Source of the DNA: Bacteroidales bacterium
GTDB taxonomy: Bacteria; Bacteroidota; Bacteroidia; Bacteroidales; GCA-2711565
Length of the DNA stretch: 64,000 bases
Direction: 5' to 3'
Assembly: GCA_963664245.1 (NCBI GenBank)
Contig: OY760934.1
Span: 2,300,376 to 2,364,375, forward strand
Of this stretch, positions 55,709-63,448 are shown in pieces. The notes under the pieces were generated by a model. The model searched no databases. It saw only the letters and a program-made list of their open reading frames with translations, and had not been told where the DNA came from. A program made the translations under genes and the position numbers. Positions within the stretch are counted from its first letter, which is position 1. Each line of letters begins with the position of its first letter.

Positions 55709-55737
55709 AAAACCCATCACTTAAGCGATGGGTTTTT
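55709..55737. terminator. bidirectional rho-independent terminator between tyrS and the 13-gene operon
   Basis: The 10-bp stem AAAACCCATC (55709-55718) pairs with GATGGGTTTT (55727-55736) across an 8-nt loop. Confidence 0.7.
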
Positions 55738-55754: not shown

Positions 55755-56198
55755 TTAATTGTAAGCCAGGCGGGTTTCTTTATCGCTCAATGTTGGCTTA
55801 ATTAATTCTTGCCATTTTTCCGATTTCCAGGTTCCCATTTTTTGGTGCGTCAAATAATATTTTTCCGGGATGGGATGTGTTCCCACCACGACTTTAACGC
55901 CAAATTTTTGTTCAATATAATTTTTGAAGTGATTAATACGGGTACATGGCGGATAACCAACCACCATTCCGGTAGCAAAATGAATCACCTCCACGCCGTT
56001 TTTTATCATTTCTTCGGGGGAGTACTCAATGTTTCCGCCGGGGCAACCTCCGCAAGTGGTATAACCGGCAATTTCAACGTCTTCATCTTTTCCGTAAATA
56101 CTAAAACCTCCTTCACGGTTTTGCAATGCCCTGAAACATTTTCCTCCGGCGCAATTGTGGTAACGGTGACAAATGACGATTCCAATCTTTTTACTCAT
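55755..56198 (-). CDS. CGGC-domain protein (Cys/His-rich, putative metal binding)
   Basis: Start trimmed to ATG 56198 (MSKKIGIVICHRYHNCAGGKC), with the CGGCPG motif. It overlaps the upstream gene by 8 nt (ATGAGTAA). Confidence 0.7.
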   Translation of the reverse strand: MSKKIGIVICHRYHNCAGGKCFRALQNREGGFSIYGKDEDVEIAGYTTCGGCPGGNIEYSPEEMIKNGVEVIHFATGMVVGYPPCTRINHFKNYIEQKFGVKVVVGTHPIPEKYYLTHQKMGTWKSEKWQELIKPTLSDKETRLAYN

Positions 56199-56859
56199 GG
56201 TTTTGTAATTTTTGATGCTCGTTAATAATATCTTTAATTTCCTGCATGCTAAAGTTATATTGTTTCCGTAAACGCCCGATGCGTTCGTCATCAGAAATAC
56301 CGGAAGGAATTCCCAGTTTCTTTTTTAATTCGCTGCACGAAATTTTGTATTCCTTTGAAATTTGACCCAGGCTCATTTGCCCGTTAATATCGATGGATGA
56401 ATAAGTATGTTCTTCATCGAGACTACCTGTTTTTTTCTCCTGAATCAGCAGATCATTATTTTTATTTCGGTAATGCGATTCGTCTTCGCCAATTTGAGGT
56501 TTTAATATAAAAGGAATCAAAACAATTAAAACCATGATGACTAAAAAAGCCCAGGCTAGCAATATCCGCAAGACTTTTGCTTTGATCCATTGGGTGTAAA
56601 TACATACGATTTGTTTCCAGTGGAGCAAAATATGTAAGATAAGCAGAACGATTAATACAATGCCTAAAATATAATGGATTTCGCCCCATTGGTGTCGGTC
56701 GAGGTTCATGAATAAAAACTCTCGGTTTTCTCCGTACAGTTCCCATTTTTCCTGACCGGTGGGCAGCATATATTTTACTAATAAACCAATACTTAAAATA
56801 ATAGCCATCACTAGTAACATGATGACATCAATAATGAAGTTTAACCTGTTTTTCCTCAT
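56191..56859 (-). CDS. DUF4405-like membrane protein (His-containing helices, possible b-type heme binding) with a soluble C-terminal tail
   Basis: 222 aa with helices carrying RHQWGEIHYILG and LHILLHWKQI. The C-terminal tail of about 70 aa is hydrophilic. Confidence 0.55.
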   Translation of the reverse strand: MRKNRLNFIIDVIMLLVMAIILSIGLLVKYMLPTGQEKWELYGENREFLFMNLDRHQWGEIHYILGIVLIVLLILHILLHWKQIVCIYTQWIKAKVLRILLAWAFLVIMVLIVLIPFILKPQIGEDESHYRNKNNDLLIQEKKTGSLDEEHTYSSIDINGQMSLGQISKEYKISCSELKKKLGIPSGISDDERIGRLRKQYNFSMQEIKDIINEHQKLQNHE

Positions 56860-56863
56860 AGCT

Positions 56864-57643
56864 TTAAATATTTATTTGGATGCCTGCCTTTATTTCGGGG
56901 CAGTTAAAGTTTTTTTGAAGTTCGGTCAACGCCTCGGATTGGGTGCAATGCGATGGGTAAATCGTGTTTATTTCTTGGCACTTTAAATATGCAATGGTTT
57001 TTTGGGTTTGTGTGTTGTTTTCTTTTAGATGCAAGCCTCCCAAAAGGGTTTTAATGGTTTGGATTCCCGTAACTTTTTTGGCGTGTTCAACAATATTGCA
57101 AATGCCCGAATGGGCGCAACCCGAAATAATTATTAATTCATTGTTTTGGATGATTGCCAGTGCTGAATCATCTAAAACATAATCCGGTTTGTTGTGTTCG
57201 TCAACAAAGGTGGTTTCTTTTGCCTCAAAGTCGTTGGTTCGGGGAATTTCTCCCAAAAAAATAATTGAATTGCTTATATTGTAAGGATTCCGGGTGTTTA
57301 CCAGTTTAAATTTTTTATTCAAATCGAGATAGCAAAGGTTTAAACCGATAAAAGAATGATCGGAATTACGGTAGCGTTTAATGAATGAATAAGGATGGCA
57401 GATTAAGGTTTTGTTGTTTAAAAATTTTAAGCCGTTTCCGTGATCCCAATGCCCGTGGCTTAGCACAATGGTTTCAACTTTTTCTAAATCGACATTGAGT
57501 TTTTTTGCGTTTTCCAGAAACAGCTTGGAGTGTCCGGCATCAAGCAATAAGCTTGTGCCTTCGTGTTCGATATAAAAAGATAAGCCGTGTTCGGCACCAA
57601 AGCCTTTTAAAGCCTGGTTGTCGGTTAAAACTGATAGTTTCAT
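56864..57643 (-). CDS. MBL-fold metallo-hydrolase (COG1237/MJ0301-like subgroup by appearance)
   Basis: 259 aa with HGHWDH and an N-terminal LSVLTDNQA...AEHGLSFYIE pattern. Confidence 0.75.
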   Translation of the reverse strand: MKLSVLTDNQALKGFGAEHGLSFYIEHEGTSLLLDAGHSKLFLENAKKLNVDLEKVETIVLSHGHWDHGNGLKFLNNKTLICHPYSFIKRYRNSDHSFIGLNLCYLDLNKKFKLVNTRNPYNISNSIIFLGEIPRTNDFEAKETTFVDEHNKPDYVLDDSALAIIQNNELIIISGCAHSGICNIVEHAKKVTGIQTIKTLLGGLHLKENNTQTQKTIAYLKCQEINTIYPSHCTQSEALTELQKNFNCPEIKAGIQINI

Positions 57644-58026
57644 TGCTTGCTGTTTTTTAGTTCAAACAAATTTCCGCTTTGGTCTTTTAGAAAAATTAAA
57701 TCATGGGTGCTATTTCGTTGTATTTGTATGATTTCGTAATGTCTCTTTTTTGCTTTGTTAAGAATTATTTCCAGGTTTGTGAATGACAAACACAGATGAT
57801 TACAATTCACCTGTGTTTGTTTATCTGTCAAAAATAGTTCAAAATAAAATTCATCGCTTTGTAATAAAAACACATTGACTTCTTTCTTGATATTAAAAAT
57901 TCTCAAGGCCAACTCTGACGAGAGTATAAAATTTCGAGTGTTATTCATTCCCAAAATATCAATGTAAAAATTTTGGATGTCCTCAAGGTGTGTAATCGTT
58001 ATTGCAATATGTTCTAATTTCATCAA
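57640..58026 (-). CDS. VOC (glyoxalase/bleomycin-resistance/dioxygenase fold) family protein
   Basis: 128 aa with an N-terminal LEHIAITITHLEDIQNFYIDILGM pattern. It overlaps the MBL gene by 4 nt. Confidence 0.55.
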   Translation of the reverse strand: MMKLEHIAITITHLEDIQNFYIDILGMNNTRNFILSSELALRIFNIKKEVNVFLLQSDEFYFELFLTDKQTQVNCNHLCLSFTNLEIILNKAKKRHYEIIQIQRNSTHDLIFLKDQSGNLFELKNSKQ

Positions 58027-58043
58027 AAAAATGAATAATGGAT

Positions 58044-59399
58044 TTATGAATTTGAAATGATTTTATCGTAAGCATTTTCGGCCGCTTTAATTAAAGGGTA
58101 TCCGGCTGGTGATGCTGTTAACAAAGGATGTGTTCCTATTTGAGCCGTCAACAGGGAATTTAGGTTCATCCTGTTTTGAATGATAATCCCGATGGTATTG
58201 GTTAGTTCACCGGATGAAAGTCCACCAAAAACCTCACCTCCTAAAATAATACCCGATTCTTTGCCGACAATTAATTTTATTAATTGTTTGTGGGTGTCGG
58301 CGAGGGTTCCGGGATGGCGGTCGATACCTTCAAATACCCCGGTTACAATATCAAAGCCTTCTTTTTTGGCCATGCTTTCGGTTAATCCGGCAACGCCGAA
58401 ACCATTGCTGCCAAAGGCGGTAGAGAAAATAGAAATGGTTCCGTTAAACGTTTTAATGGCCGAAAGTTTGTACAGGTTCATGCCTGCAATACGAGCTTCG
58501 GCACAAGCCGTTGAGGCTAACATGATTGGACTGGGTTTGCGGGTGAAAAAGTCCCTTTTTTCAGCACAATCGCCCACGGCAAATATATTGGAATCTTCGG
58601 TACGCATGTATTCGTCTACTTTGATGTAGCCGTTTTCCGACATGGGAAGATTTGCTTTTGTTGCAAGGTTTATGTCGGGTTTGTATCCCATGGCTAAAAT
58701 AACGGCATCAGCATCAATTTTTTCTCCGTTTTCGAGCTCAACTTGTTGAACCTTTTGATTCCCGAGAATTTGTTTGATCCCGTTTCCTTTGATGATTTTT
58801 AATCCACGTTCTTCTAAAATACTTTCTACTTTACTTGCAAATTCTTCATCAAAAGCCAGGCTTAAAATATGTGGTAATTTTTCGATGAGGGTAATATCTT
58901 TACCTTTTTTTATTAATTCGTCCGAGATTTCAGCACCGATGAACCCCCCGCCGACAACAACTATTTTTTTATACTCCGATAATTTGGGGATAATATTGTC
59001 GATATAGTTTTTGTTTTTCGGGATGGTGAATACATTTTCCAGATCATGACCTTTTAACCAATGAGGTACGCTGGGAACAGAGCCCGTTCCCATGACTAGT
59101 TTTTCGTAGCTCAGTTTCTGGCCGTTTTTTAATTCAACGCAATTATTTTTACGGTCGATGTCAGAAACTTCTTCATGGATGATGTTTATGCCCATTGATT
59201 CGCACATTTTTTCGGCCGGCAAAATGTTGTTGCTTGTTGATTCAACAGATCCGAACACGTATGGAATTCCACAAGGAATAAGGGTTTGAGATTGTTTTGA
59301 AATAATAGTTACATCCTTGTTTTTATAGATTCTTTTAGCGGTAGTTGCGGCAACCAATCCGGATGCACTACTACCAATAACGATAACATCTGATTTCAT
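58044..59399 (-). CDS. FAD-dependent pyridine nucleotide-disulfide oxidoreductase, CoA-disulfide reductase/NADH oxidase-peroxidase type
   Basis: 451 aa with dinucleotide motifs VIGSSASG and VVGGGFIGAE, a single redox Cys in LIPCGIPYVFG, and GDCA. Confidence 0.8.
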   Translation of the reverse strand: MKSDVIVIGSSASGLVAATTAKRIYKNKDVTIISKQSQTLIPCGIPYVFGSVESTSNNILPAEKMCESMGINIIHEEVSDIDRKNNCVELKNGQKLSYEKLVMGTGSVPSVPHWLKGHDLENVFTIPKNKNYIDNIIPKLSEYKKIVVVGGGFIGAEISDELIKKGKDITLIEKLPHILSLAFDEEFASKVESILEERGLKIIKGNGIKQILGNQKVQQVELENGEKIDADAVILAMGYKPDINLATKANLPMSENGYIKVDEYMRTEDSNIFAVGDCAEKRDFFTRKPSPIMLASTACAEARIAGMNLYKLSAIKTFNGTISIFSTAFGSNGFGVAGLTESMAKKEGFDIVTGVFEGIDRHPGTLADTHKQLIKLIVGKESGIILGGEVFGGLSSGELTNTIGIIIQNRMNLNSLLTAQIGTHPLLTASPAGYPLIKAAENAYDKIISNS

Positions 59400-59400
59400 T

Positions 59401-59739
59401 TTAAAATTTGTTTAGTGTTTTGTTTTTAAAGGCTTTATAAGCCTGTTCAATGTTCATGTCGTTGGCTCCGATATAAATCTCAATGCCGATTTTTTCGAGG
59501 ATTTGTGCAGCATTTCCGCCAGGACCGTTTCCTGTGATTAAAATATCCGGCTTCATTTCAAATAATTTTTGAGCTGTTTTTGGACCCGCACCATGCGCTT
59601 CGTTTTCAATTTCGCGGTTATCGAAACTGTTTATTTCCTGCGTGTCTTCGTCGTATATTAACAGGTAGTCAGTTCGTCCAAAACGGGGATCTATCATTGA
59701 ATCCCACTTGTTTCCTTTGCTTGTAAATGCAATTTTCAT
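59401..59739 (-). CDS. NifX/NifB-C-terminal-type (dinitrogenase FeMo-cofactor-binding fold, MTH1175-like) protein
   Basis: 112 aa with RFGRTDYLLIYD, ITGNGPGGNA and an overall ribonuclease-H-like NifX pattern. Confidence 0.75.
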   Translation of the reverse strand: MKIAFTSKGNKWDSMIDPRFGRTDYLLIYDEDTQEINSFDNREIENEAHGAGPKTAQKLFEMKPDILITGNGPGGNAAQILEKIGIEIYIGANDMNIEQAYKAFKNKTLNKF

Positions 59740-59746
59740 CTGATTT

Positions 59747-60619
59747 TTATATTAAATGTTTAATTTTTTCAAAACTCTCTTTAATAATTTCTTTGACCTT
59801 ACCATCATCGTACTCAACAATACATTTGCCCTGTATCATTGCTTTGGTGAAGCTTTCGTTGTATGGAACAACGTTCAACAGCTCAATGTTTTCTGCAATT
59901 AAATAAGCCTTGATTGTTTGGGTATATTCCGGGTTTATATCAAATTTATTAATGATGCAGCCGGCTTTTATTTTAAACTTTTTAACCAGTTCGTAAACCC
60001 GTTGTAAATCATGAAATCCTGATTTACTGGGTTCGGTAACCAGTACCACGTAATGTGCCCCCGAAAGCGATGAAATAACCGGGCATCCGATTCCTGGGGA
60101 GCCGTCTACCAGGATGATATTTTTGCCTTCTTTTTCTGCAATTTCCCGGGCCTTTTTTTTCACTTCAGCCACCAGTTTGCCAGAATTCTCTGCAGCTATT
60201 CCGAGCTTTGCATGAACCATGTTTTGTTTGTGCTTGGTGGTTGAAATATAAAGCTGTCCCACATTGTTGCTTTTCATTTGTATGGCCTGTGTGGGACAAA
60301 CTTTTTCGCAATACCCGCAACCTTCACAATCGAGTTCGTCAACGTAGAAATTGTTTGCCGTTTCTTTTATCGCATCAAAACGGCAGATGTTTTTACAAAT
60401 CCCGCATTGGGTACATTTTTCCGGGGCAATGTTTGCAATGAACCCGCTGTAGAAATCATTTTGTTCGAGGACATTTGGTTGTAACAATAAATGTAAATCA
60501 GCGGCATCTACATCACAATCGGCCACCACAATATCGTTTATGCCAAGGCATGCAAACGAAGCGGTTATTGAGGTTTTTCCGGTGCCCCCTTTTCCTGATA
60601 TTACCACAATTTCTTTCAT
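59747..60619 (-). CDS. MinD/ParA-type P-loop ATPase with inserted 2x[4Fe-4S] ferredoxin domain
   Basis: Deviant Walker A SGKGGTGKTS, CTQCGICKNIC and CEGCGYCEKVCP. It overlaps the upstream paralog by 4 nt. Confidence 0.8.
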   Translation of the reverse strand: MKEIVVISGKGGTGKTSITASFACLGINDIVVADCDVDAADLHLLLQPNVLEQNDFYSGFIANIAPEKCTQCGICKNICRFDAIKETANNFYVDELDCEGCGYCEKVCPTQAIQMKSNNVGQLYISTTKHKQNMVHAKLGIAAENSGKLVAEVKKKAREIAEKEGKNIILVDGSPGIGCPVISSLSGAHYVVLVTEPSKSGFHDLQRVYELVKKFKIKAGCIINKFDINPEYTQTIKAYLIAENIELLNVVPYNESFTKAMIQGKCIVEYDDGKVKEIIKESFEKIKHLI

Positions 60620-61482
60620 CTTGCTCCCTCCTGGTTTAATTCAAAAACCTGTTGTTTGATGGATTCGAAAACTGCTGGTATGCCAGGTATTTTATCATAA
60701 AATAATTCTCCTTTCGAGTATAATTCGGCAATGTTCCGGTCGTGTTTAATTTTGGCTAGGATGGCGATGTTTTCTTTCCGGCAGTATTTTTCCACTTCAT
60801 CGTTCCCGATCCCGTCGCGGTTTATAACCACCCCCATTTTTTTCTTTAATTTTTTAACGGTTTCTATGGCTAGTTTTAAATCGTGAAAACCAAAAGGAGT
60901 CGGTTCGGTAACCAAAATAACAAAATCAACCTTTTTAATGGTTTCGATAACCGGGCAGGATGTTCCCGGCGGGGCATCAAATATCACAATTGCCGAATTG
61001 TTGAAATGGTTTTCAATATAATCAACACTTTGGGCAATAAGCGGAACAGCTTGTTCCTGGCCGATCATCAAACGACTTTCGATAAAATTAAGTGTATTGT
61101 TTTTAAAATGACGGAGCTCTCCTATTTTTTCGGTAATCATGGGTAGAGAACCGGTAGGGCATAATTCTGAGCAAGCAAAACAACTGTGGCACAATTGAGG
61201 GAAAACGGAAATGTGTTTTCCCAGTTGTATAATTGCATTAAAATTGCAGTTTTTCTGGCAATTTCCACAGTAGGTACAATTGTCTTCTACCCATTCAGGA
61301 ACCATTTTAAATTTATCTTCGGTGTTTACCAGGTTTCCCTGGATAAACAAACCGGAATTGGGTTCCTCAACATCTAAATCAGCTAAAATTACGTCGGAAG
61401 ATTTTGACAAAAACGAAGCAAAATTTGTTGACAGGCTCGTTTTTCCTGTTCCTCCTTTTCCGCTGGCAATGGCTATTTTCAC
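60616..61482 (-). CDS. MinD/ParA-type P-loop ATPase with inserted 2x[4Fe-4S] ferredoxin domain (paralog)
   Basis: Deviant Walker A SGKGGTGKTS, CTYCGNCQKNC and CHSCFACSELCP. It overlaps the upstream gene by 4 nt. Confidence 0.8.
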   Translation of the reverse strand: MKIAIASGKGGTGKTSLSTNFASFLSKSSDVILADLDVEEPNSGLFIQGNLVNTEDKFKMVPEWVEDNCTYCGNCQKNCNFNAIIQLGKHISVFPQLCHSCFACSELCPTGSLPMITEKIGELRHFKNNTLNFIESRLMIGQEQAVPLIAQSVDYIENHFNNSAIVIFDAPPGTSCPVIETIKKVDFVILVTEPTPFGFHDLKLAIETVKKLKKKMGVVINRDGIGNDEVEKYCRKENIAILAKIKHDRNIAELYSKGELFYDKIPGIPAVFESIKQQVFELNQEGAR

Positions 61483-61964
61483 TTTTTTCGTAATATGGTT
61501 TGTTCGGGAACCTTTTGTCCGTTAAAATGTTTATCAACCCAACCGGAGTTTACGTTTTTGCGTTCATCAAAATGTTTAACAAAAGGCTTGATGTCCAGAA
61601 CTGGTGTGCCGTCAAAAACATCTACTTCTGAGAAGTAGAGTTTATGGTTTTCGATTATATTAATTTTTACAATGGAGAACCCGATTTTATTTGGCCGGTG
61701 CGGGCTCCTGATGGCAAAAATGCCATGCTTAACAGGCTCCAAAAATGGTTGCCCGACCAAGGTTGTTTTATCGGTTTGGTGAAAATAATAAATCAAAATA
61801 GCATGCGAAAACCCCTCCAGATCAAGAAGCCCTTCGGTAAATTCTTCCTTTAAGATACAACAGGCCTCGGTTTCGGGTTTAAAGCAACCCTGAATGGGCA
61901 TGTCTTTCGTCTCTTTATAAGGCGATTCAATGAATCCGATAGGTTCAAAACATATCTTTTCCAT
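61479..61964 (-). CDS. TsaA/TrmO-family (UPF0066) SAM-dependent methyltransferase-fold protein
   Basis: 161 aa with IGFIESPY, HRPNKIGFSIV and DGTPVLDIKPF. Confidence 0.75.
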   Translation of the reverse strand: MEKICFEPIGFIESPYKETKDMPIQGCFKPETEACCILKEEFTEGLLDLEGFSHAILIYYFHQTDKTTLVGQPFLEPVKHGIFAIRSPHRPNKIGFSIVKINIIENHKLYFSEVDVFDGTPVLDIKPFVKHFDERKNVNSGWVDKHFNGQKVPEQTILRKK

Positions 61965-61970
61965 GGACTG

Positions 61971-62309
61971 TTAGTGGTCGCAAAGGTTCTCTCCGGTTTT
62001 TAATTGATTGTTTAAGTAATCTGAAACTAATTGCTTGGGACTTCCTGCACCTACACCCATACACACGGCAATGTTGTTTTGTGTGAAAAGGTCTTGTGCT
62101 TTTTGGCCCATTCCGCCGGCAATAATAACATTTACGCCTTGCTCGGCTAAATACCTGGGATAAACCCCGGGTTGGTGAACCGGTGGGGTAATGCTTTGTT
62201 CGTTAGTGATTGTTCCGTTTTCGGTATCAATAATTGCAAATTTTTCGCAATGTCCGAAATGGGCGGTTAGTTCTCCGTTTAATGTTGGTATGGCAAATCT
62301 TTTATTCAT
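61971..62309 (-). CDS. NifX/NifB-C-terminal-type (MTH1175-like) protein
   Basis: 112 aa with HFGHCEKFAIID and VIIAGGMGQKA. Confidence 0.75.
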   Translation of the reverse strand: MNKRFAIPTLNGELTAHFGHCEKFAIIDTENGTITNEQSITPPVHQPGVYPRYLAEQGVNVIIAGGMGQKAQDLFTQNNIAVCMGVGAGSPKQLVSDYLNNQLKTGENLCDH

Positions 62310-62310
62310 G

Positions 62311-62493
62311 TTATTTATTTTTTAATAGTTCTTCCCTTATCATTGTTTTTCCACAGTTGGGGCATTTTAAAGTGGTGCATTTGACCCCTTTTTGATGAGG
62401 TATTTTGGTTCCGCATTTCGCGCAGATACAAAATCCTCCGGGACCAAATGCCCCGCCTTTGTTTTTTCCTTTTCCAGGATTGTTATTTTGCAT
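62311..62493 (-). CDS. 60-aa Gly/Lys-rich, Cys-rich zinc-ribbon-like mini-protein
   Basis: [10 protein letters not shown]....[10 protein letters not shown]. It overlaps the upstream stop by 11 nt and ends 1 nt before the next gene. Confidence 0.55.
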
Positions 62494-62785
62494 TTTTCGA
62501 CTCTAAATCTTTTAACCTGGATTCAAGCACAGAAATATGATCTTTGAACCGTTGGATTTCGTTTCTAAGATCACTTTCGTTGATTTCATTTTCGGGATAA
62601 TTTCTTCTGAAACCTCTTCCAAACCCTAAAAATGAGCGATGATACCTGCGGTTTCTGAACCCTCTTCCCATTCTTCCGAATGACTGGGTTTCGTATCCTG
62701 CCGAATCGTACCCGGCACAATATCCTAATTTTTTTCCGCTTAATGGACCTTTACCTTCCGGCCCTGTTTTGTTTCCTGCTGGCAT
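62483..62785 (-). CDS. DUF5320-like protein (Gly/Arg-rich N-half, coiled-coil C-half)
   Basis: Start trimmed to ATG 62785 ([26 protein letters not shown]...GRGFRN...), with a C-terminal heptad-like [23 protein letters not shown]. Confidence 0.6.
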
Positions 62786-63242
62786 AATGACCTCCTTTTT
62801 TTTGATTTCTGTTTGCACAACATCTGCCGTGACCAAAACCGCCTGCCAGGTTTAAAATGTTTTTTGAATGGCAGGACGGGCATTCTGAAACTGTTTCATG
62901 AATGTTTATATTGAACAAATGTCCACAACTTTTACATCGGATGATGTTTTTTCGGAAATGAACATTGCCCCCGTCAATGAAAAGCATTTTCCCGTCGATG
63001 ATTAATTCCGACACTTTTTTCCGTGCCTGTTCTATTAAACGTGTAAAAGTAGAGCGGGATATTTCCATTTCTTCCGAAGCTTCTTCGTGCGATAAACCAA
63101 GTTTATCAGCTAATCGGAGTGCTTCAAATTCATCCAATGATAAATTTACTTCTTCAAGCATGCTTCCTTTTACCCCTGTTGGTTTAAATTCGTTAAACAA
63201 AGGGGGCTCTTGTACTATCCGGTTGTTTTTTGGTCGAGGCAT
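62751..63242 (-). CDS. DUF134 (UPF0251) family putative DNA-binding regulator with C-terminal CxxC...CxxC zinc ribbon
   Basis: MPRPKNNR...LSLDEFEALRLAD..GLSHEEASEEMEISRSTFTRLIEQARKKV, a sigma70 region-4-like HTH, followed by CKSCGH...CPSCHS. It is the first gene of the operon. Confidence 0.75.
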   Translation of the reverse strand: MPRPKNNRIVQEPPLFNEFKPTGVKGSMLEEVNLSLDEFEALRLADKLGLSHEEASEEMEISRSTFTRLIEQARKKVSELIIDGKMLFIDGGNVHFRKNIIRCKSCGHLFNINIHETVSECPSCHSKNILNLAGGFGHGRCCANRNQKKGGHYASRKQNRAGR

Positions 63243-63259
63243 AATAAATATTTATACCA

Positions 63260-63267
63260 CAAAAGTA
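63260..63267 (-). promoter_or_regulatory. Bacteroidota -7 promoter box TACTTTTG for the DUF134-led operon
   Basis: The minus strand reads TACTTTTG (matches TAnnTTTG), with 17 nt between the box and the ATG at 63242. The palindrome ACATATGT lies just upstream at 63272-63279. Confidence 0.45.
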
Positions 63268-63405: not shown

Positions 63406-63448
63406 GCTGAGCGGAGTCGAAGCGTCATTTCGACTTCGCTCAATGACC
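63406..63448. repeat. inverted pair of REP-like units forming a 14-bp hairpin; probable convergent terminator of cysS and the ancestral tyrS
   Basis: TGAGCGGAGTCGAA (63408-63421) pairs with TTCGACTTCGCTCA (63429-63442), with one G-U pair and a 7-nt loop. 18 nt (63406-63423) are the exact reverse complement of 41031-41048. Confidence 0.7.

Follow-up and report, generated by a model that had tools for sequence, protein, structure and literature searches.

Among the systems described so far, the closest to the locus treated here is the orange-protein (ORP) complex of Desulfovibrio vulgaris and D. alaskensis, with its components Orp3, Orp4, Orp5, Orp8 and MrpORP (Orp9). Orp3 and Orp4 are MinD-type ATPases, and the orange protein has a bound Mo-Cu-sulfide cluster (PMC6345978). 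Expression of the orp genes in D. vulgaris is confined to low, sulfidic redox potential (PMC8359166). Anaerobes widely carry this complex, which in Desulfovibrio has been connected with cell morphology and with growth at low redox potential, and whose biochemical function has been an open question since 2011. Here we analyse a 13-gene operon in a stretch of 64,000 nucleotides from a Bacteroidales genome (contig OY760934.1, positions 2,300,376 to 2,364,375; hereafter the window). Its first eight genes are, by homology, a Bacteroidota version of the ORP metallocluster-handling complex. Its last five encode a flavoprotein of the CoA-disulfide reductase (CoADR) group, a VOC protein, an MBL-fold protein, a DUF4405 membrane protein and a CGGC-domain protein, and their presence hints that NADH/sulfur redox chemistry feeds the ORP-like complex or is coupled to it.

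How far does the resemblance to the ORP complex extend? Both systems have two paralogous MinD ATPases, each with two [4Fe-4S] motifs; in the window's pair, which are 31% identical to one another, each protein carries an inserted 2x[4Fe-4S] ferredoxin domain. Both have an orange-protein-like Nitro_FeMo-Co protein, Orp8 in Desulfovibrio and NifXb in the window, as well as a small Cys-rich protein, and they share the restriction to anaerobes. The second NifX-like protein of the window, NifXa, matches the C-terminal domain of MrpORP, including the HFGHCE motif highlighted for that protein in PMC6345978. Against the MrpORP model NF041136 it scores 126 bits (cut-off 450) over profile positions 265-365, that is, the C-terminal domain only; unlike MrpORP it stands alone, without the fused Mrp/NBP35 domain. 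The gene arrangement differs too. Desulfovibrio has two divergent operons under sigma54/OrpR control, whereas the window has a single operon headed by a DUF134 gene, with no gene for OrpR or an enhancer-binding protein inside it (sigma54 promoter motifs were not searched). The window also adds DUF5320, TrmO_N and the five-gene redox block, which are absent from the Desulfovibrio descriptions in PMC6345978 and PMC8359166.

A preliminary description of this DNA knew of no described system of such composition. For the proximal NifX/MinD module this no longer holds: with its Orp3/Orp4-type ATPases, the match of NifXb to the D. gigas orange protein (2wfb) and that of NifXa to the C-terminal part of MrpORP, it corresponds to the Desulfovibrio complex. 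The ORP complex and each of the single domains are already known. For the attachment of the redox block to the ORP genes, and for the flavoprotein clade with a second Cys described below, we found no description in the searchable literature; an earlier ORP synteny survey lies outside its coverage, so that prior mention is possible. Searches of the literature on the CGGC domain, DUF134, COG1149/COG1433 and COG1237/TM1679 returned nothing relevant.

Other described systems bear on single members of the operon. NoxA-3 of A. fulgidus (AfNpsr; Protein Data Bank (PDB) entry 6pfz) is an NADH-specific persulfide/polysulfide reductase, which does not reduce CoA disulfide and has an NADH-oxidase side activity in air (PMC7969121). 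DUF4405 proteins bind haem b; so does the ferrosome protein FezC, which has three transmembrane (TM) helices and presumably acts here in homodimeric form (PMC11334425). In the thioferrate storage of Pyrococcus furiosus, IssA uses a domain of the same NifX family to handle inorganic iron-sulfur species (PMC5524996). IssA has a C-terminal Gly-rich cationic tail, which the NifX-like proteins of the window lack, and its gene arrangement differs; the likeness is a lead only. A CoADR-like sulfur reductase presumably belongs to the elemental-sulfur response of P. furiosus.

The distal block within one operon

Are the five distal genes real, and do they share a transcription unit with the ORP-like genes? 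The preliminary description had them continue the operon, in the same orientation, behind the NifX and MinD genes, and so they do. All 13 genes lie on the minus strand, from the DUF134 start at 63242 to the CGGC stop at 55755, with junctions of -35 to +17 nt (table 1). NifXb stands directly upstream of the flavoprotein, with a gap of 1 nt; the junctions that follow are +17 nt (flavoprotein to VOC), -4 nt (VOC to MBL), +4 nt (MBL to DUF4405) and -8 nt (DUF4405 to CGGC), and these computed values equal the earlier figures exactly. Pfam upheld all five of the earlier domain calls, the flavoprotein without rhodanese included. Homologues are 57-73% identical for the flavoprotein (across phyla), 70-86% for the CGGC protein, 47-56% for the MBL protein and 49% for the VOC protein. 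Since all five have conserved homologues elsewhere, they are true genes and not chance open reading frames (ORFs). In a sister strain the gene caller took the VOC start at the ATG one codon in. The longest ORF of the CGGC gene extends to 56291; the start that is conserved (MSKKIGI...) lies at the ATG at 56198, in overlap with the DUF4405 stop codon as ATGAGTAA.

Hairpins lie at both boundaries of the unit (table 1). Within the operon, a scan for terminators and sigma70-type promoters gave fewer sites than shuffles and no credible terminator. The bipartite Bacteroidetes promoter pattern had no match inside the operon, its window-wide count being at chance level. The 17-nt gap between the flavoprotein and VOC genes gave no fold, and no riboswitch (Moco included) or other Rfam element was found at E <= 1. 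Isolated -7-like boxes in the MinDb, flavoprotein and VOC ORFs were judged uninformative. Given the boundary hairpins and the absence of any terminator, promoter or structure between them in these scans, co-transcription of the 13 genes would be the parsimonious reading, and these scans gave no terminator or bipartite promoter of the kind that, on the earlier description, would part the two halves.

Recurrence beside ORP-like modules

Does the joining of the block to an ORP-like module recur? Taking the flavoprotein as the anchor, we counted 11 non-redundant arrangements with informative upstream sequence, from the genome and encoding contigs. NifX-MinD-MinD-NifX lies immediately upstream of the flavoprotein in six of the 11 (L002, L025, L026, L027, L114, L115). 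The flavoprotein is also directly 3' of the module in L003, L028 and L116 and in the truncated L031, which repeats the window's order TrmO-MinD-MinD-NifX-flavoprotein. The usual place of the block is directly 3' of DUF134-DUF5320-NifX-MinD-MinD-NifX. One arrangement (L009) has a DUF134 gene with fused zinc ribbon directly heading flavoprotein-MBL-ArsR; another (L005) has DUF134, a zinc-ribbon gene and NifXa 9 kb from the flavoprotein; and three (L004, L006, L008) have none of DUF134, NifX or MinD near it.

The block itself varies in content. It reads flavoprotein-methyltransferase-MBL-DUF89-DUF4405-CGGC in L114, flavoprotein-MBL-DUF4405-CGGC-radical SAM in L115/L116 and flavoprotein-MBL-ArsP_2-VOC-DUF89-CGGC-radical SAM in L117; it shrinks to flavoprotein-DUF4405-CGGC in L002 and L026 and to flavoprotein-CGGC in L027. 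In L113 the CGGC and DUF4405 genes adjoin in reversed order behind DUF364 and DUF89, with NifX-like and ParA genes upstream. VOC occurs in two lineages only.

The view from the MinD side rests on 80 metagenome loci anchored on MinDb, 23 of them with at least 3 kb on both sides; membership of the flavoprotein family was set at an ORF scoring at least 560 bits. The MinD-MinD-NifX module is very widespread in this set and usually lacks the distal genes. In the 23 well-flanked loci the COG1237 MBL is found five times, TrmO_N four times, CGGC twice, DUF4405 at most once and VOC never. MinD/NifX modules with other gene arrangements likewise have CGGC, COG1237 MBL or TrmO_N beside them.

In a neighbour-joining tree, the flavoprotein orthologues of Bacteroidota and Cloacimonetes form one clade. 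The flavoprotein of L034, whose order is CGGC-MinD-MinD-NifX, a gap, then flavoprotein-MBL, stands among ArsR-linked sequences, and ORP-like modules also contain, or lie close to, members of the sister clade that lacks Cys299 (L056, L068). The tree thus suggests that the linkage of flavoprotein and ORP genes arose or persisted on at least three branches, which argues for a functional, though non-obligatory, coupling of the two halves. We conclude that the distal genes are a recurrent but variable accessory block and not a fixed half. Many Bacteroidota and Cloacimonetes, plus some other lineages, attach defined partners to the ORP genes, namely an NADH flavoprotein, a haem-b-type membrane protein and a Cys-rich protein. 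These provide assayable handles on the ORP complex: the substrate of the flavoprotein, the metal on CGGC and NifX, and a possible contact of flavoprotein or cytochrome with NifX/MinD. They also give a genomic context to two functionally near-blank domains, CGGC and the COG1237 MBL.

What surrounds the flavoprotein elsewhere? In L004 (Planctomycetota) the order is ArsR, a 105-aa protein, a CoADR paralogue, the orthologue and an 820-aa CoADR fusion, the rhodanese, TusA and DsrE-like parts of which were judged from sequence and not by Pfam. ArsR adjoins the orthologue in L006. L007/L008 have radical SAM, methyltransferase, the orthologue, ArsR, SLAC1/TehA, an AhpD-like protein and FMN reductase, and the orthologue of L005 is divergent from a cytochrome bd oxidase, with two Usp genes and a PAS-sigma54 activator behind it. 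Such non-ORP contexts suggest a link with stress, be it from reactive sulfur, thiols, metalloids or oxidation, and keep rival explanations alive.

ArsR-family regulators stand directly beside the orthologue wherever MinD/NifX are absent (L004, L006, L007, L008, L009). Related loci (L025, L113, L114, L117) carry further genes inside or beside the block: a DUF89/ARMT1-like phosphatase, which is present in all four, a radical SAM protein of 311 aa, a small methyltransferase and an ArsP_2 permease. A paralogue search of the window found no copy of the radical SAM, DUF89, ArsP_2, methyltransferase or 4HBT genes. The accessory repertoire exceeds the five genes of the window.

Possible roles of the block and the alternatives

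What kind of enzyme is the flavoprotein? Pfam finds FAD, NAD(P)H and dimerisation domains (Pyr_redox_2, 8e-60; Pyr_redox, 9e-21; Pyr_redox_dim, 5e-13) and no Rhodanese match, the chain ending at residue 451. The best PDB matches are 6pfz (1.6e-47) and the Pyrococcus CoADR 4fx9 (4.9e-44); CoA-persulfide reductase 8a56 and NADH peroxidase (Npx) are matched as well. Against the CoADR models it scores 237.7 bits (TIGR03385, cut-off 578.8) and 231.6 bits (NF007123, cut-off 458), and against the NADH oxidase (Nox) equivalog 185 bits (cut-off 600). With scores so far below the equivalog cut-offs, a bona fide CoADR, Nox or Npx was rejected. The protein is best placed, by sequence, in the CoADR/Npsr/Nox/Npx group as a distinct clade with no curated equivalog. 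Orthologues at 57-73% come from Bacteroidota, Cloacimonetes, Calditrichia, Planctomycetota, Clostridiaceae and Thermotogaceae, and from bins labelled Bipolaricaulota and Syntrophoarchaeum.

Two Cys are invariant throughout this clade: Cys43, in the motif PCGIPY, and Cys299 (LASTAC299AEAR), in place of which a 42%-identical sister clade has Thr and CoADR and NoxA-3 have Asn. By its phmmer coordinates Cys299 maps to residue 303 of Npx; the fragment 2-92 of the query pairs with Npx 263-351, and the relatives shown have a single gap, which lies downstream. We take Arg303 to be an active-site residue of NADH peroxidase, 1f8w being the R303M mutant, and Npx catalysis to depend on His10 and Arg303 beside the Cys-sulfenic acid. 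The position of His10 is Ala in the flavoprotein (GSSASG). The second Rossmann strand (GxGxxG...TLIEK) ends in Glu, classically a mark of NADH-preferring enzymes, from which we infer a preference for NADH.

The preliminary description had recognized the CoADR/NADH peroxidase arrangement with a single N-terminal redox Cys. The arrangement stands as regards the domains, Cys43 and the missing rhodanese, but the protein falls far below every CoADR, Nox and Npx equivalog cut-off; and the redox Cys, though invariant, is not strictly single, Cys299 being invariant in the clade. The closest relatives, Npsr (6pfz; Shewanella 3nta) and CoA-persulfide reductase (8a56), give the best PDB scores and share the FAD/NADH/dimerisation architecture, the N-terminal redox Cys in xxxCGxPY and the acidic residue of NADH preference. 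They are about 35% identical to the window's protein and differ from it in having a C-terminal rhodanese with its Cys, in place of which the window has Cys299 in the FAD domain. CoADR (Pyrococcus 4fx9; TIGR03385) and NADH peroxidase/oxidase (1joa, 2bc0) have the same fold, single-Cys chemistry and about 450 aa; the window's flavoprotein is below the cut-offs for CoADR and Nox and lacks the His10 and Arg303 of Npx. A flavoprotein clade with a putative second active-site Cys would be a small, testable enzymological novelty.

The DUF4405 protein (PF14358, 2e-12; 47.6 bits, cut-off 26.7) has three TM helices in the AlphaFold2 (AF2) model, then a disordered linker and a conserved C-terminal tail of about 60 aa with four helices. 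The pLDDT is 69 overall and about 85 in the tail, the pTM is 0.42, and a Foldseek search with this model gave no meaningful matches. In the alignment His56, His62 and His76 are invariant and His80 is conserved in six of seven sequences. The positive-inside rule would place the N-terminus and the TM2-TM3 loop in the cytoplasm and the tail outside it. That DUF4405 proteins are haem-b cytochromes (PMC11334425) fits the suggestion that this membrane protein could be the point of electron entry. The window's protein shares with these and with FezC the Pfam domain and the conserved TM His, and with FezC, the proposed haem-b dimer, the 3-TM format. On the other hand, it adds the helical tail and a CGGC partner, and the 13 operon proteins include no ApbE, FMN_bind/flavinylation or ferrosome protein.

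The tail (56191-56400) is a duplicated strand-helix-turn-helix with the motif G.M(S/T)L..(V/I)S..Y.(I/V)P...L...L.(I/L)P...S..E.(L/I)G.L(R/G)(K/R).Y.F. It is confidently folded in the model but has no counterpart in Pfam or among PDB folds. In L004 (16172-17323) a polyferredoxin membrane protein has, behind its signal anchor, a segment that looks similar by eye. In sister strain L001 (12541-13213; DNA 99% identical), whose flavoprotein is 100% identical to that of the window, the DUF4405 gene is frameshifted and called as 101 aa only, and an intact, 94%-identical copy (P0247) lies on another contig. The broken gene is either an assembly error or a pseudogene.

The CGGC protein (PF08821, 1e-28; 100.1 bits, cut-off 27) has invariant C16, C21, C49, C52, C85, H73, H108 and H118 in the alignment. 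The protein is cytoplasmic, and its confident AF2 model (pLDDT 92.8) is a flavodoxin-like three-layer alpha/beta fold. There was no PDB sequence match and no Foldseek match at E <= 0.001, the best Foldseek matches being generic flavodoxin/Rossmann-like folds at a TM score of ~0.4.

The VOC protein is a single Glyoxalase module (Pfam 1e-5; 26.3 bits, cut-off 20.6) with a predicted metal quartet H5/E62/H76/E121, numbered from the ATG at 58023. It scores 34.5 bits against the methylmalonyl-CoA epimerase model TIGR03081 (cut-off 115) and has no PDB sequence match. A 49%-identical orthologue stands in the same block of L117, a metagenome-assembled genome of Saprospiraceae, with all four ligand positions conserved by inspection. 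The MBL protein (Pfam Lactamase_B, 1e-9; motif HGHWDH) matches three PDB entries only, 2p4z (4e-28), 3h3e (TM1679; 3e-27) and 7dck, all of them COG1237-type structural-genomics proteins without assigned function, and it has orthologues 3' of the flavoprotein in L009, L034, L114, L115 and L117. The persulfide dioxygenase or glyoxalase role named earlier for such folds is not borne out: with PDB matches of the COG1237/TM1679 type only, ETHE1 and glyoxalase II (GloB) were rejected.

How might these proteins work together? Our preferred reading, which we hold tentatively and at somewhat less than an even chance, is an NADH-driven sulfane-sulfur/thiol reductase with a cytochrome b/CGGC electron path, serving the cluster-handling module. 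The flavoprotein would be an NADH-dependent enzyme of the CoADR/persulfide-reductase group, in which Cys43, probably with Cys299 at the flavin site, reduces sulfane sulfur (persulfide or polysulfide) or a thiol-disulfide. Clusters under construction, in storage or under repair on NifX/MinD would thereby receive sulfide or reduced thiol, or else be rid of oxidised sulfur. The 3-TM DUF4405 protein may dimerise into a bis-His haem-b cytochrome. Together with the Cys/His-rich CGGC protein of the cytoplasm, which constantly accompanies it, it would link the system electrically with the membrane, at the quinone pool or the periplasm. VOC and the COG1237 MBL would be lineage-variable metalloenzyme accessories acting on a small molecule. 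We favour this reading because 6pfz, the nearest relative of solved structure, is a persulfide/polysulfide reductase specific for NADH; because the L004 orthologue adjoins a CoADR-rhodanese-TusA-DsrE-like fusion; because Cys43 and Cys299 are invariant and the DUF4405 His residues are conserved with haem-b relatives; and because the orp genes of D. vulgaris are expressed only at low, sulfidic redox potential. A bolder version, which we think unlikely, is an undescribed membrane-coupled machine that passes electrons from NADH through the two-Cys flavoprotein and a CGGC metal/Fe-S protein to a dimeric DUF4405 cytochrome b, driving reductive sulfur delivery to, or redox gating of, the assembly or storage of metal-sulfide clusters (Fe-S or Mo/W/Cu-S) on NifX/orange-protein carriers. 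If true, it would be the first biochemical input for the ORP complex.

Several findings weigh against the reductase reading. The flavoprotein lacks the rhodanese used by Npsr and CoA-persulfide reductase and stays below all equivalog cut-offs. The Desulfovibrio ORP operons list no such distal genes (PMC6345978). Orthologues in Planctomycetota, Clostridiaceae, Calditrichia and the Bipolaricaulota- and Syntrophoarchaeum-labelled bins come without MinD/NifX, next to ArsR, TehA-like, AhpD-like, FMN-reductase or cytochrome bd genes, and CGGC orthologues too occur in unrelated contexts. One fusion event, passed on vertically, could account for much of the synteny in Bacteroidota. The co-occurrence of the two halves to which the preliminary description had looked holds in part: the link recurs in other genomes and on at least three branches, but the flavoprotein family is in only three of the 23 well-flanked MinD loci (L034, L056, L068), just one of these three flavoproteins being from the Cys299 clade, and MBL, CGGC and VOC reach only five, two and none of the 23.

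Might the block instead protect against O2 or peroxide? The flavoprotein would then be an NADH oxidase or peroxidase shielding oxygen-labile clusters, with cytochrome b and CGGC in the same defence. Its family includes Nox and Npx, the L005 orthologue is divergent from cytochrome bd oxidase and adjoins the two Usp genes and the PAS-sigma54 activator, and L007/L008 have AhpD-like and FMN-reductase genes. The catalytic partners of Npx, however, are absent (His10 is Ala and the Arg303 position Cys), and the Nox equivalog score is 185 against 600 bits. The NADH oxidase activity of AfNpsr in air (PMC7969121) speaks for protection, as does the response of ORP expression to redox potential, but a rise of that potential turns the ORP genes of D. 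vulgaris off instead of on (PMC8359166). We regard a protective role as a minority possibility.

Handling of metals, metalloids or chalcogens (thiomolybdate/thiotungstate, Cu, As, Te, Se) we consider distinctly unlikely. It would make the flavoprotein a reductase like MerA or the tellurite reductases, and the NifX proteins binders of the metal-sulfide products, in keeping with the Mo-Cu-sulfide cluster of the orange protein (PMC6345978). TehA/SLAC1, methyltransferase and radical SAM genes flank the orthologue in L008; an ArsP_2 permease lies inside the L117 block and near that of L113; an RND-efflux membrane-fusion gene (HlyD/CusB-type) is divergent in L009; and the second active-site Cys could chelate metal. 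The window's operon, on the other hand, has no metal-transport or ars genes, and no Moco or other riboswitch was found. The ArsR-family regulators beside the orthologue in L004, L006, L007, L008 and L009 would also fit, but ArsR-family regulators also sense persulfides, so that this link cannot separate a metal(loid) from a sulfur role.

Very unlikely, in our estimate, is homeostasis of CoA or other low-molecular-weight thiols, in which a CoADR keeps CoA reduced, VOC and MBL deal with CoA thio-adducts in the manner of glyoxalases I and II, DUF89 (in related loci) clears away damaged phosphopantetheine and adjacency to ORP is regulatory only. DUF89 phosphatases do act on damaged phosphopantetheine, and the DUF89/ARMT1-like gene is present in L025, L113, L114 and L117. 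The best NCBIfam match of the flavoprotein is CoADR, but its score is far below that cut-off; VOC and MBL occur together in the window and L117, but the MBL is of COG1237 type, not glyoxalase II, and VOC is confined to two lineages. The DUF4405 and CGGC genes and the repeated joining to MinD/NifX would be left unexplained. Just as improbable is that the halves are not coupled at all, the distal genes being independent ones packed behind ORP-like genes in one Bacteroidota lineage and vertically inherited: most ORP-like modules do lack the distal genes, the Bacteroidota and Cloacimonetes orthologues do form one clade, and flavoprotein and CGGC each occur alone elsewhere, but the junctions of +1, -4 and -8 nt are translationally coupled, the linkage is found on at least three branches in varied gene orders (L034, L056/L068, and L009 with DUF134 only), and CGGC, MBL and TrmO_N recur independently with MinD/NifX modules.

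Other features of the locus

Table 1. Genes and transcription signals of the 13-gene operon, in window coordinates and listed in the direction of transcription.
Feature	Positions	Strand	Basis or remarks
Stem-loop directly 3' of the cysS stop	63409-63441	minus	13-bp stem; fold -26.5 kcal/mol, z -5.8; parts cysS from the operon
Bacteroidetes-type -7 box TACTTTTG	63260-63267	minus	18 nt 5' of the DUF134 ATG; consensus match only
DUF134 helix-turn-helix/Zn-ribbon regulator, operon head	62751-63242	minus	Pfam
DUF5320 protein	62483-62785	minus	Pfam
60-aa Cys-rich zinc-ribbon protein	62311-62493	minus	Pfam scan of operon head
NifX-like protein a (NifXa)	61971-62309	minus	HFGHCE and C-terminal CDH motifs; PDB match to TM1816
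TrmO_N/TsaA-like protein	61479-61964	minus	Pfam 4e-36; TIGR00104 122.6 bits, cut-off 93
MinD/ParA P-loop ATPases (two), Orp3/Orp4 type	60616-61482 and 59747-60619	minus	Pfam CbiA/ParA and Fer4 families
NifX-like protein b (NifXb), Orp8 homologue	59401-59739	minus	Pfam Nitro_FeMo-Co; PDB 2wfb (D. gigas ORP) 7.4e-11, 1rdu 1e-11
CoADR-group flavoprotein	58044-59399	minus	451 aa; ORF and Pfam
VOC protein	57640-58026	minus	128 aa from TTG, or 127 aa from ATG at 58023
MBL-fold protein	56864-57643	minus	259 aa
DUF4405 membrane protein	56191-56859	minus	222 aa
CGGC-domain protein	55755-56198	minus	147 aa from ATG overlapping upstream stop by 8 nt
Bidirectional terminator hairpin	55709-55736		Between the CGGC stop and convergent tyrS; 12 bp, then T-rich tail; fold -21.1 kcal/mol, z -6.2

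The order at the operon head (DUF134, DUF5320, Cys-rich protein) is the same in L002, L026, L114 and L115. The C-terminus of the DUF134 protein is a Cys-rich zinc-ribbon tail. The start of DUF5320 is ambiguous, being either the TTG at 62836 or the ATG at 62785, and even the ATG version overlaps the DUF134 gene by 35 nt. The 60-aa Cys-rich protein possibly corresponds to Orp5, which is a small [2Fe-2S] protein. The 60-aa protein is 67-77% identical in the closest loci and 45-61% in farther ones, which is high for its size; its gene is missed by some gene callers and is fused to the DUF134 regulator in L009.

Homologues of the TrmO_N-like protein adjoin MinD/NifX genes in 11 of the 80 MinD-anchored metagenome loci. 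Because its gene lies inside an ORP-like module and recurs in this way, the protein may here have a role other than tRNA methylation. A gene for a 4HBT-type thioesterase is divergent upstream of DUF134 in L114 (3030-3416) and L115 (3327-3707), both Bacteroidales, in the place where the window has cysS.

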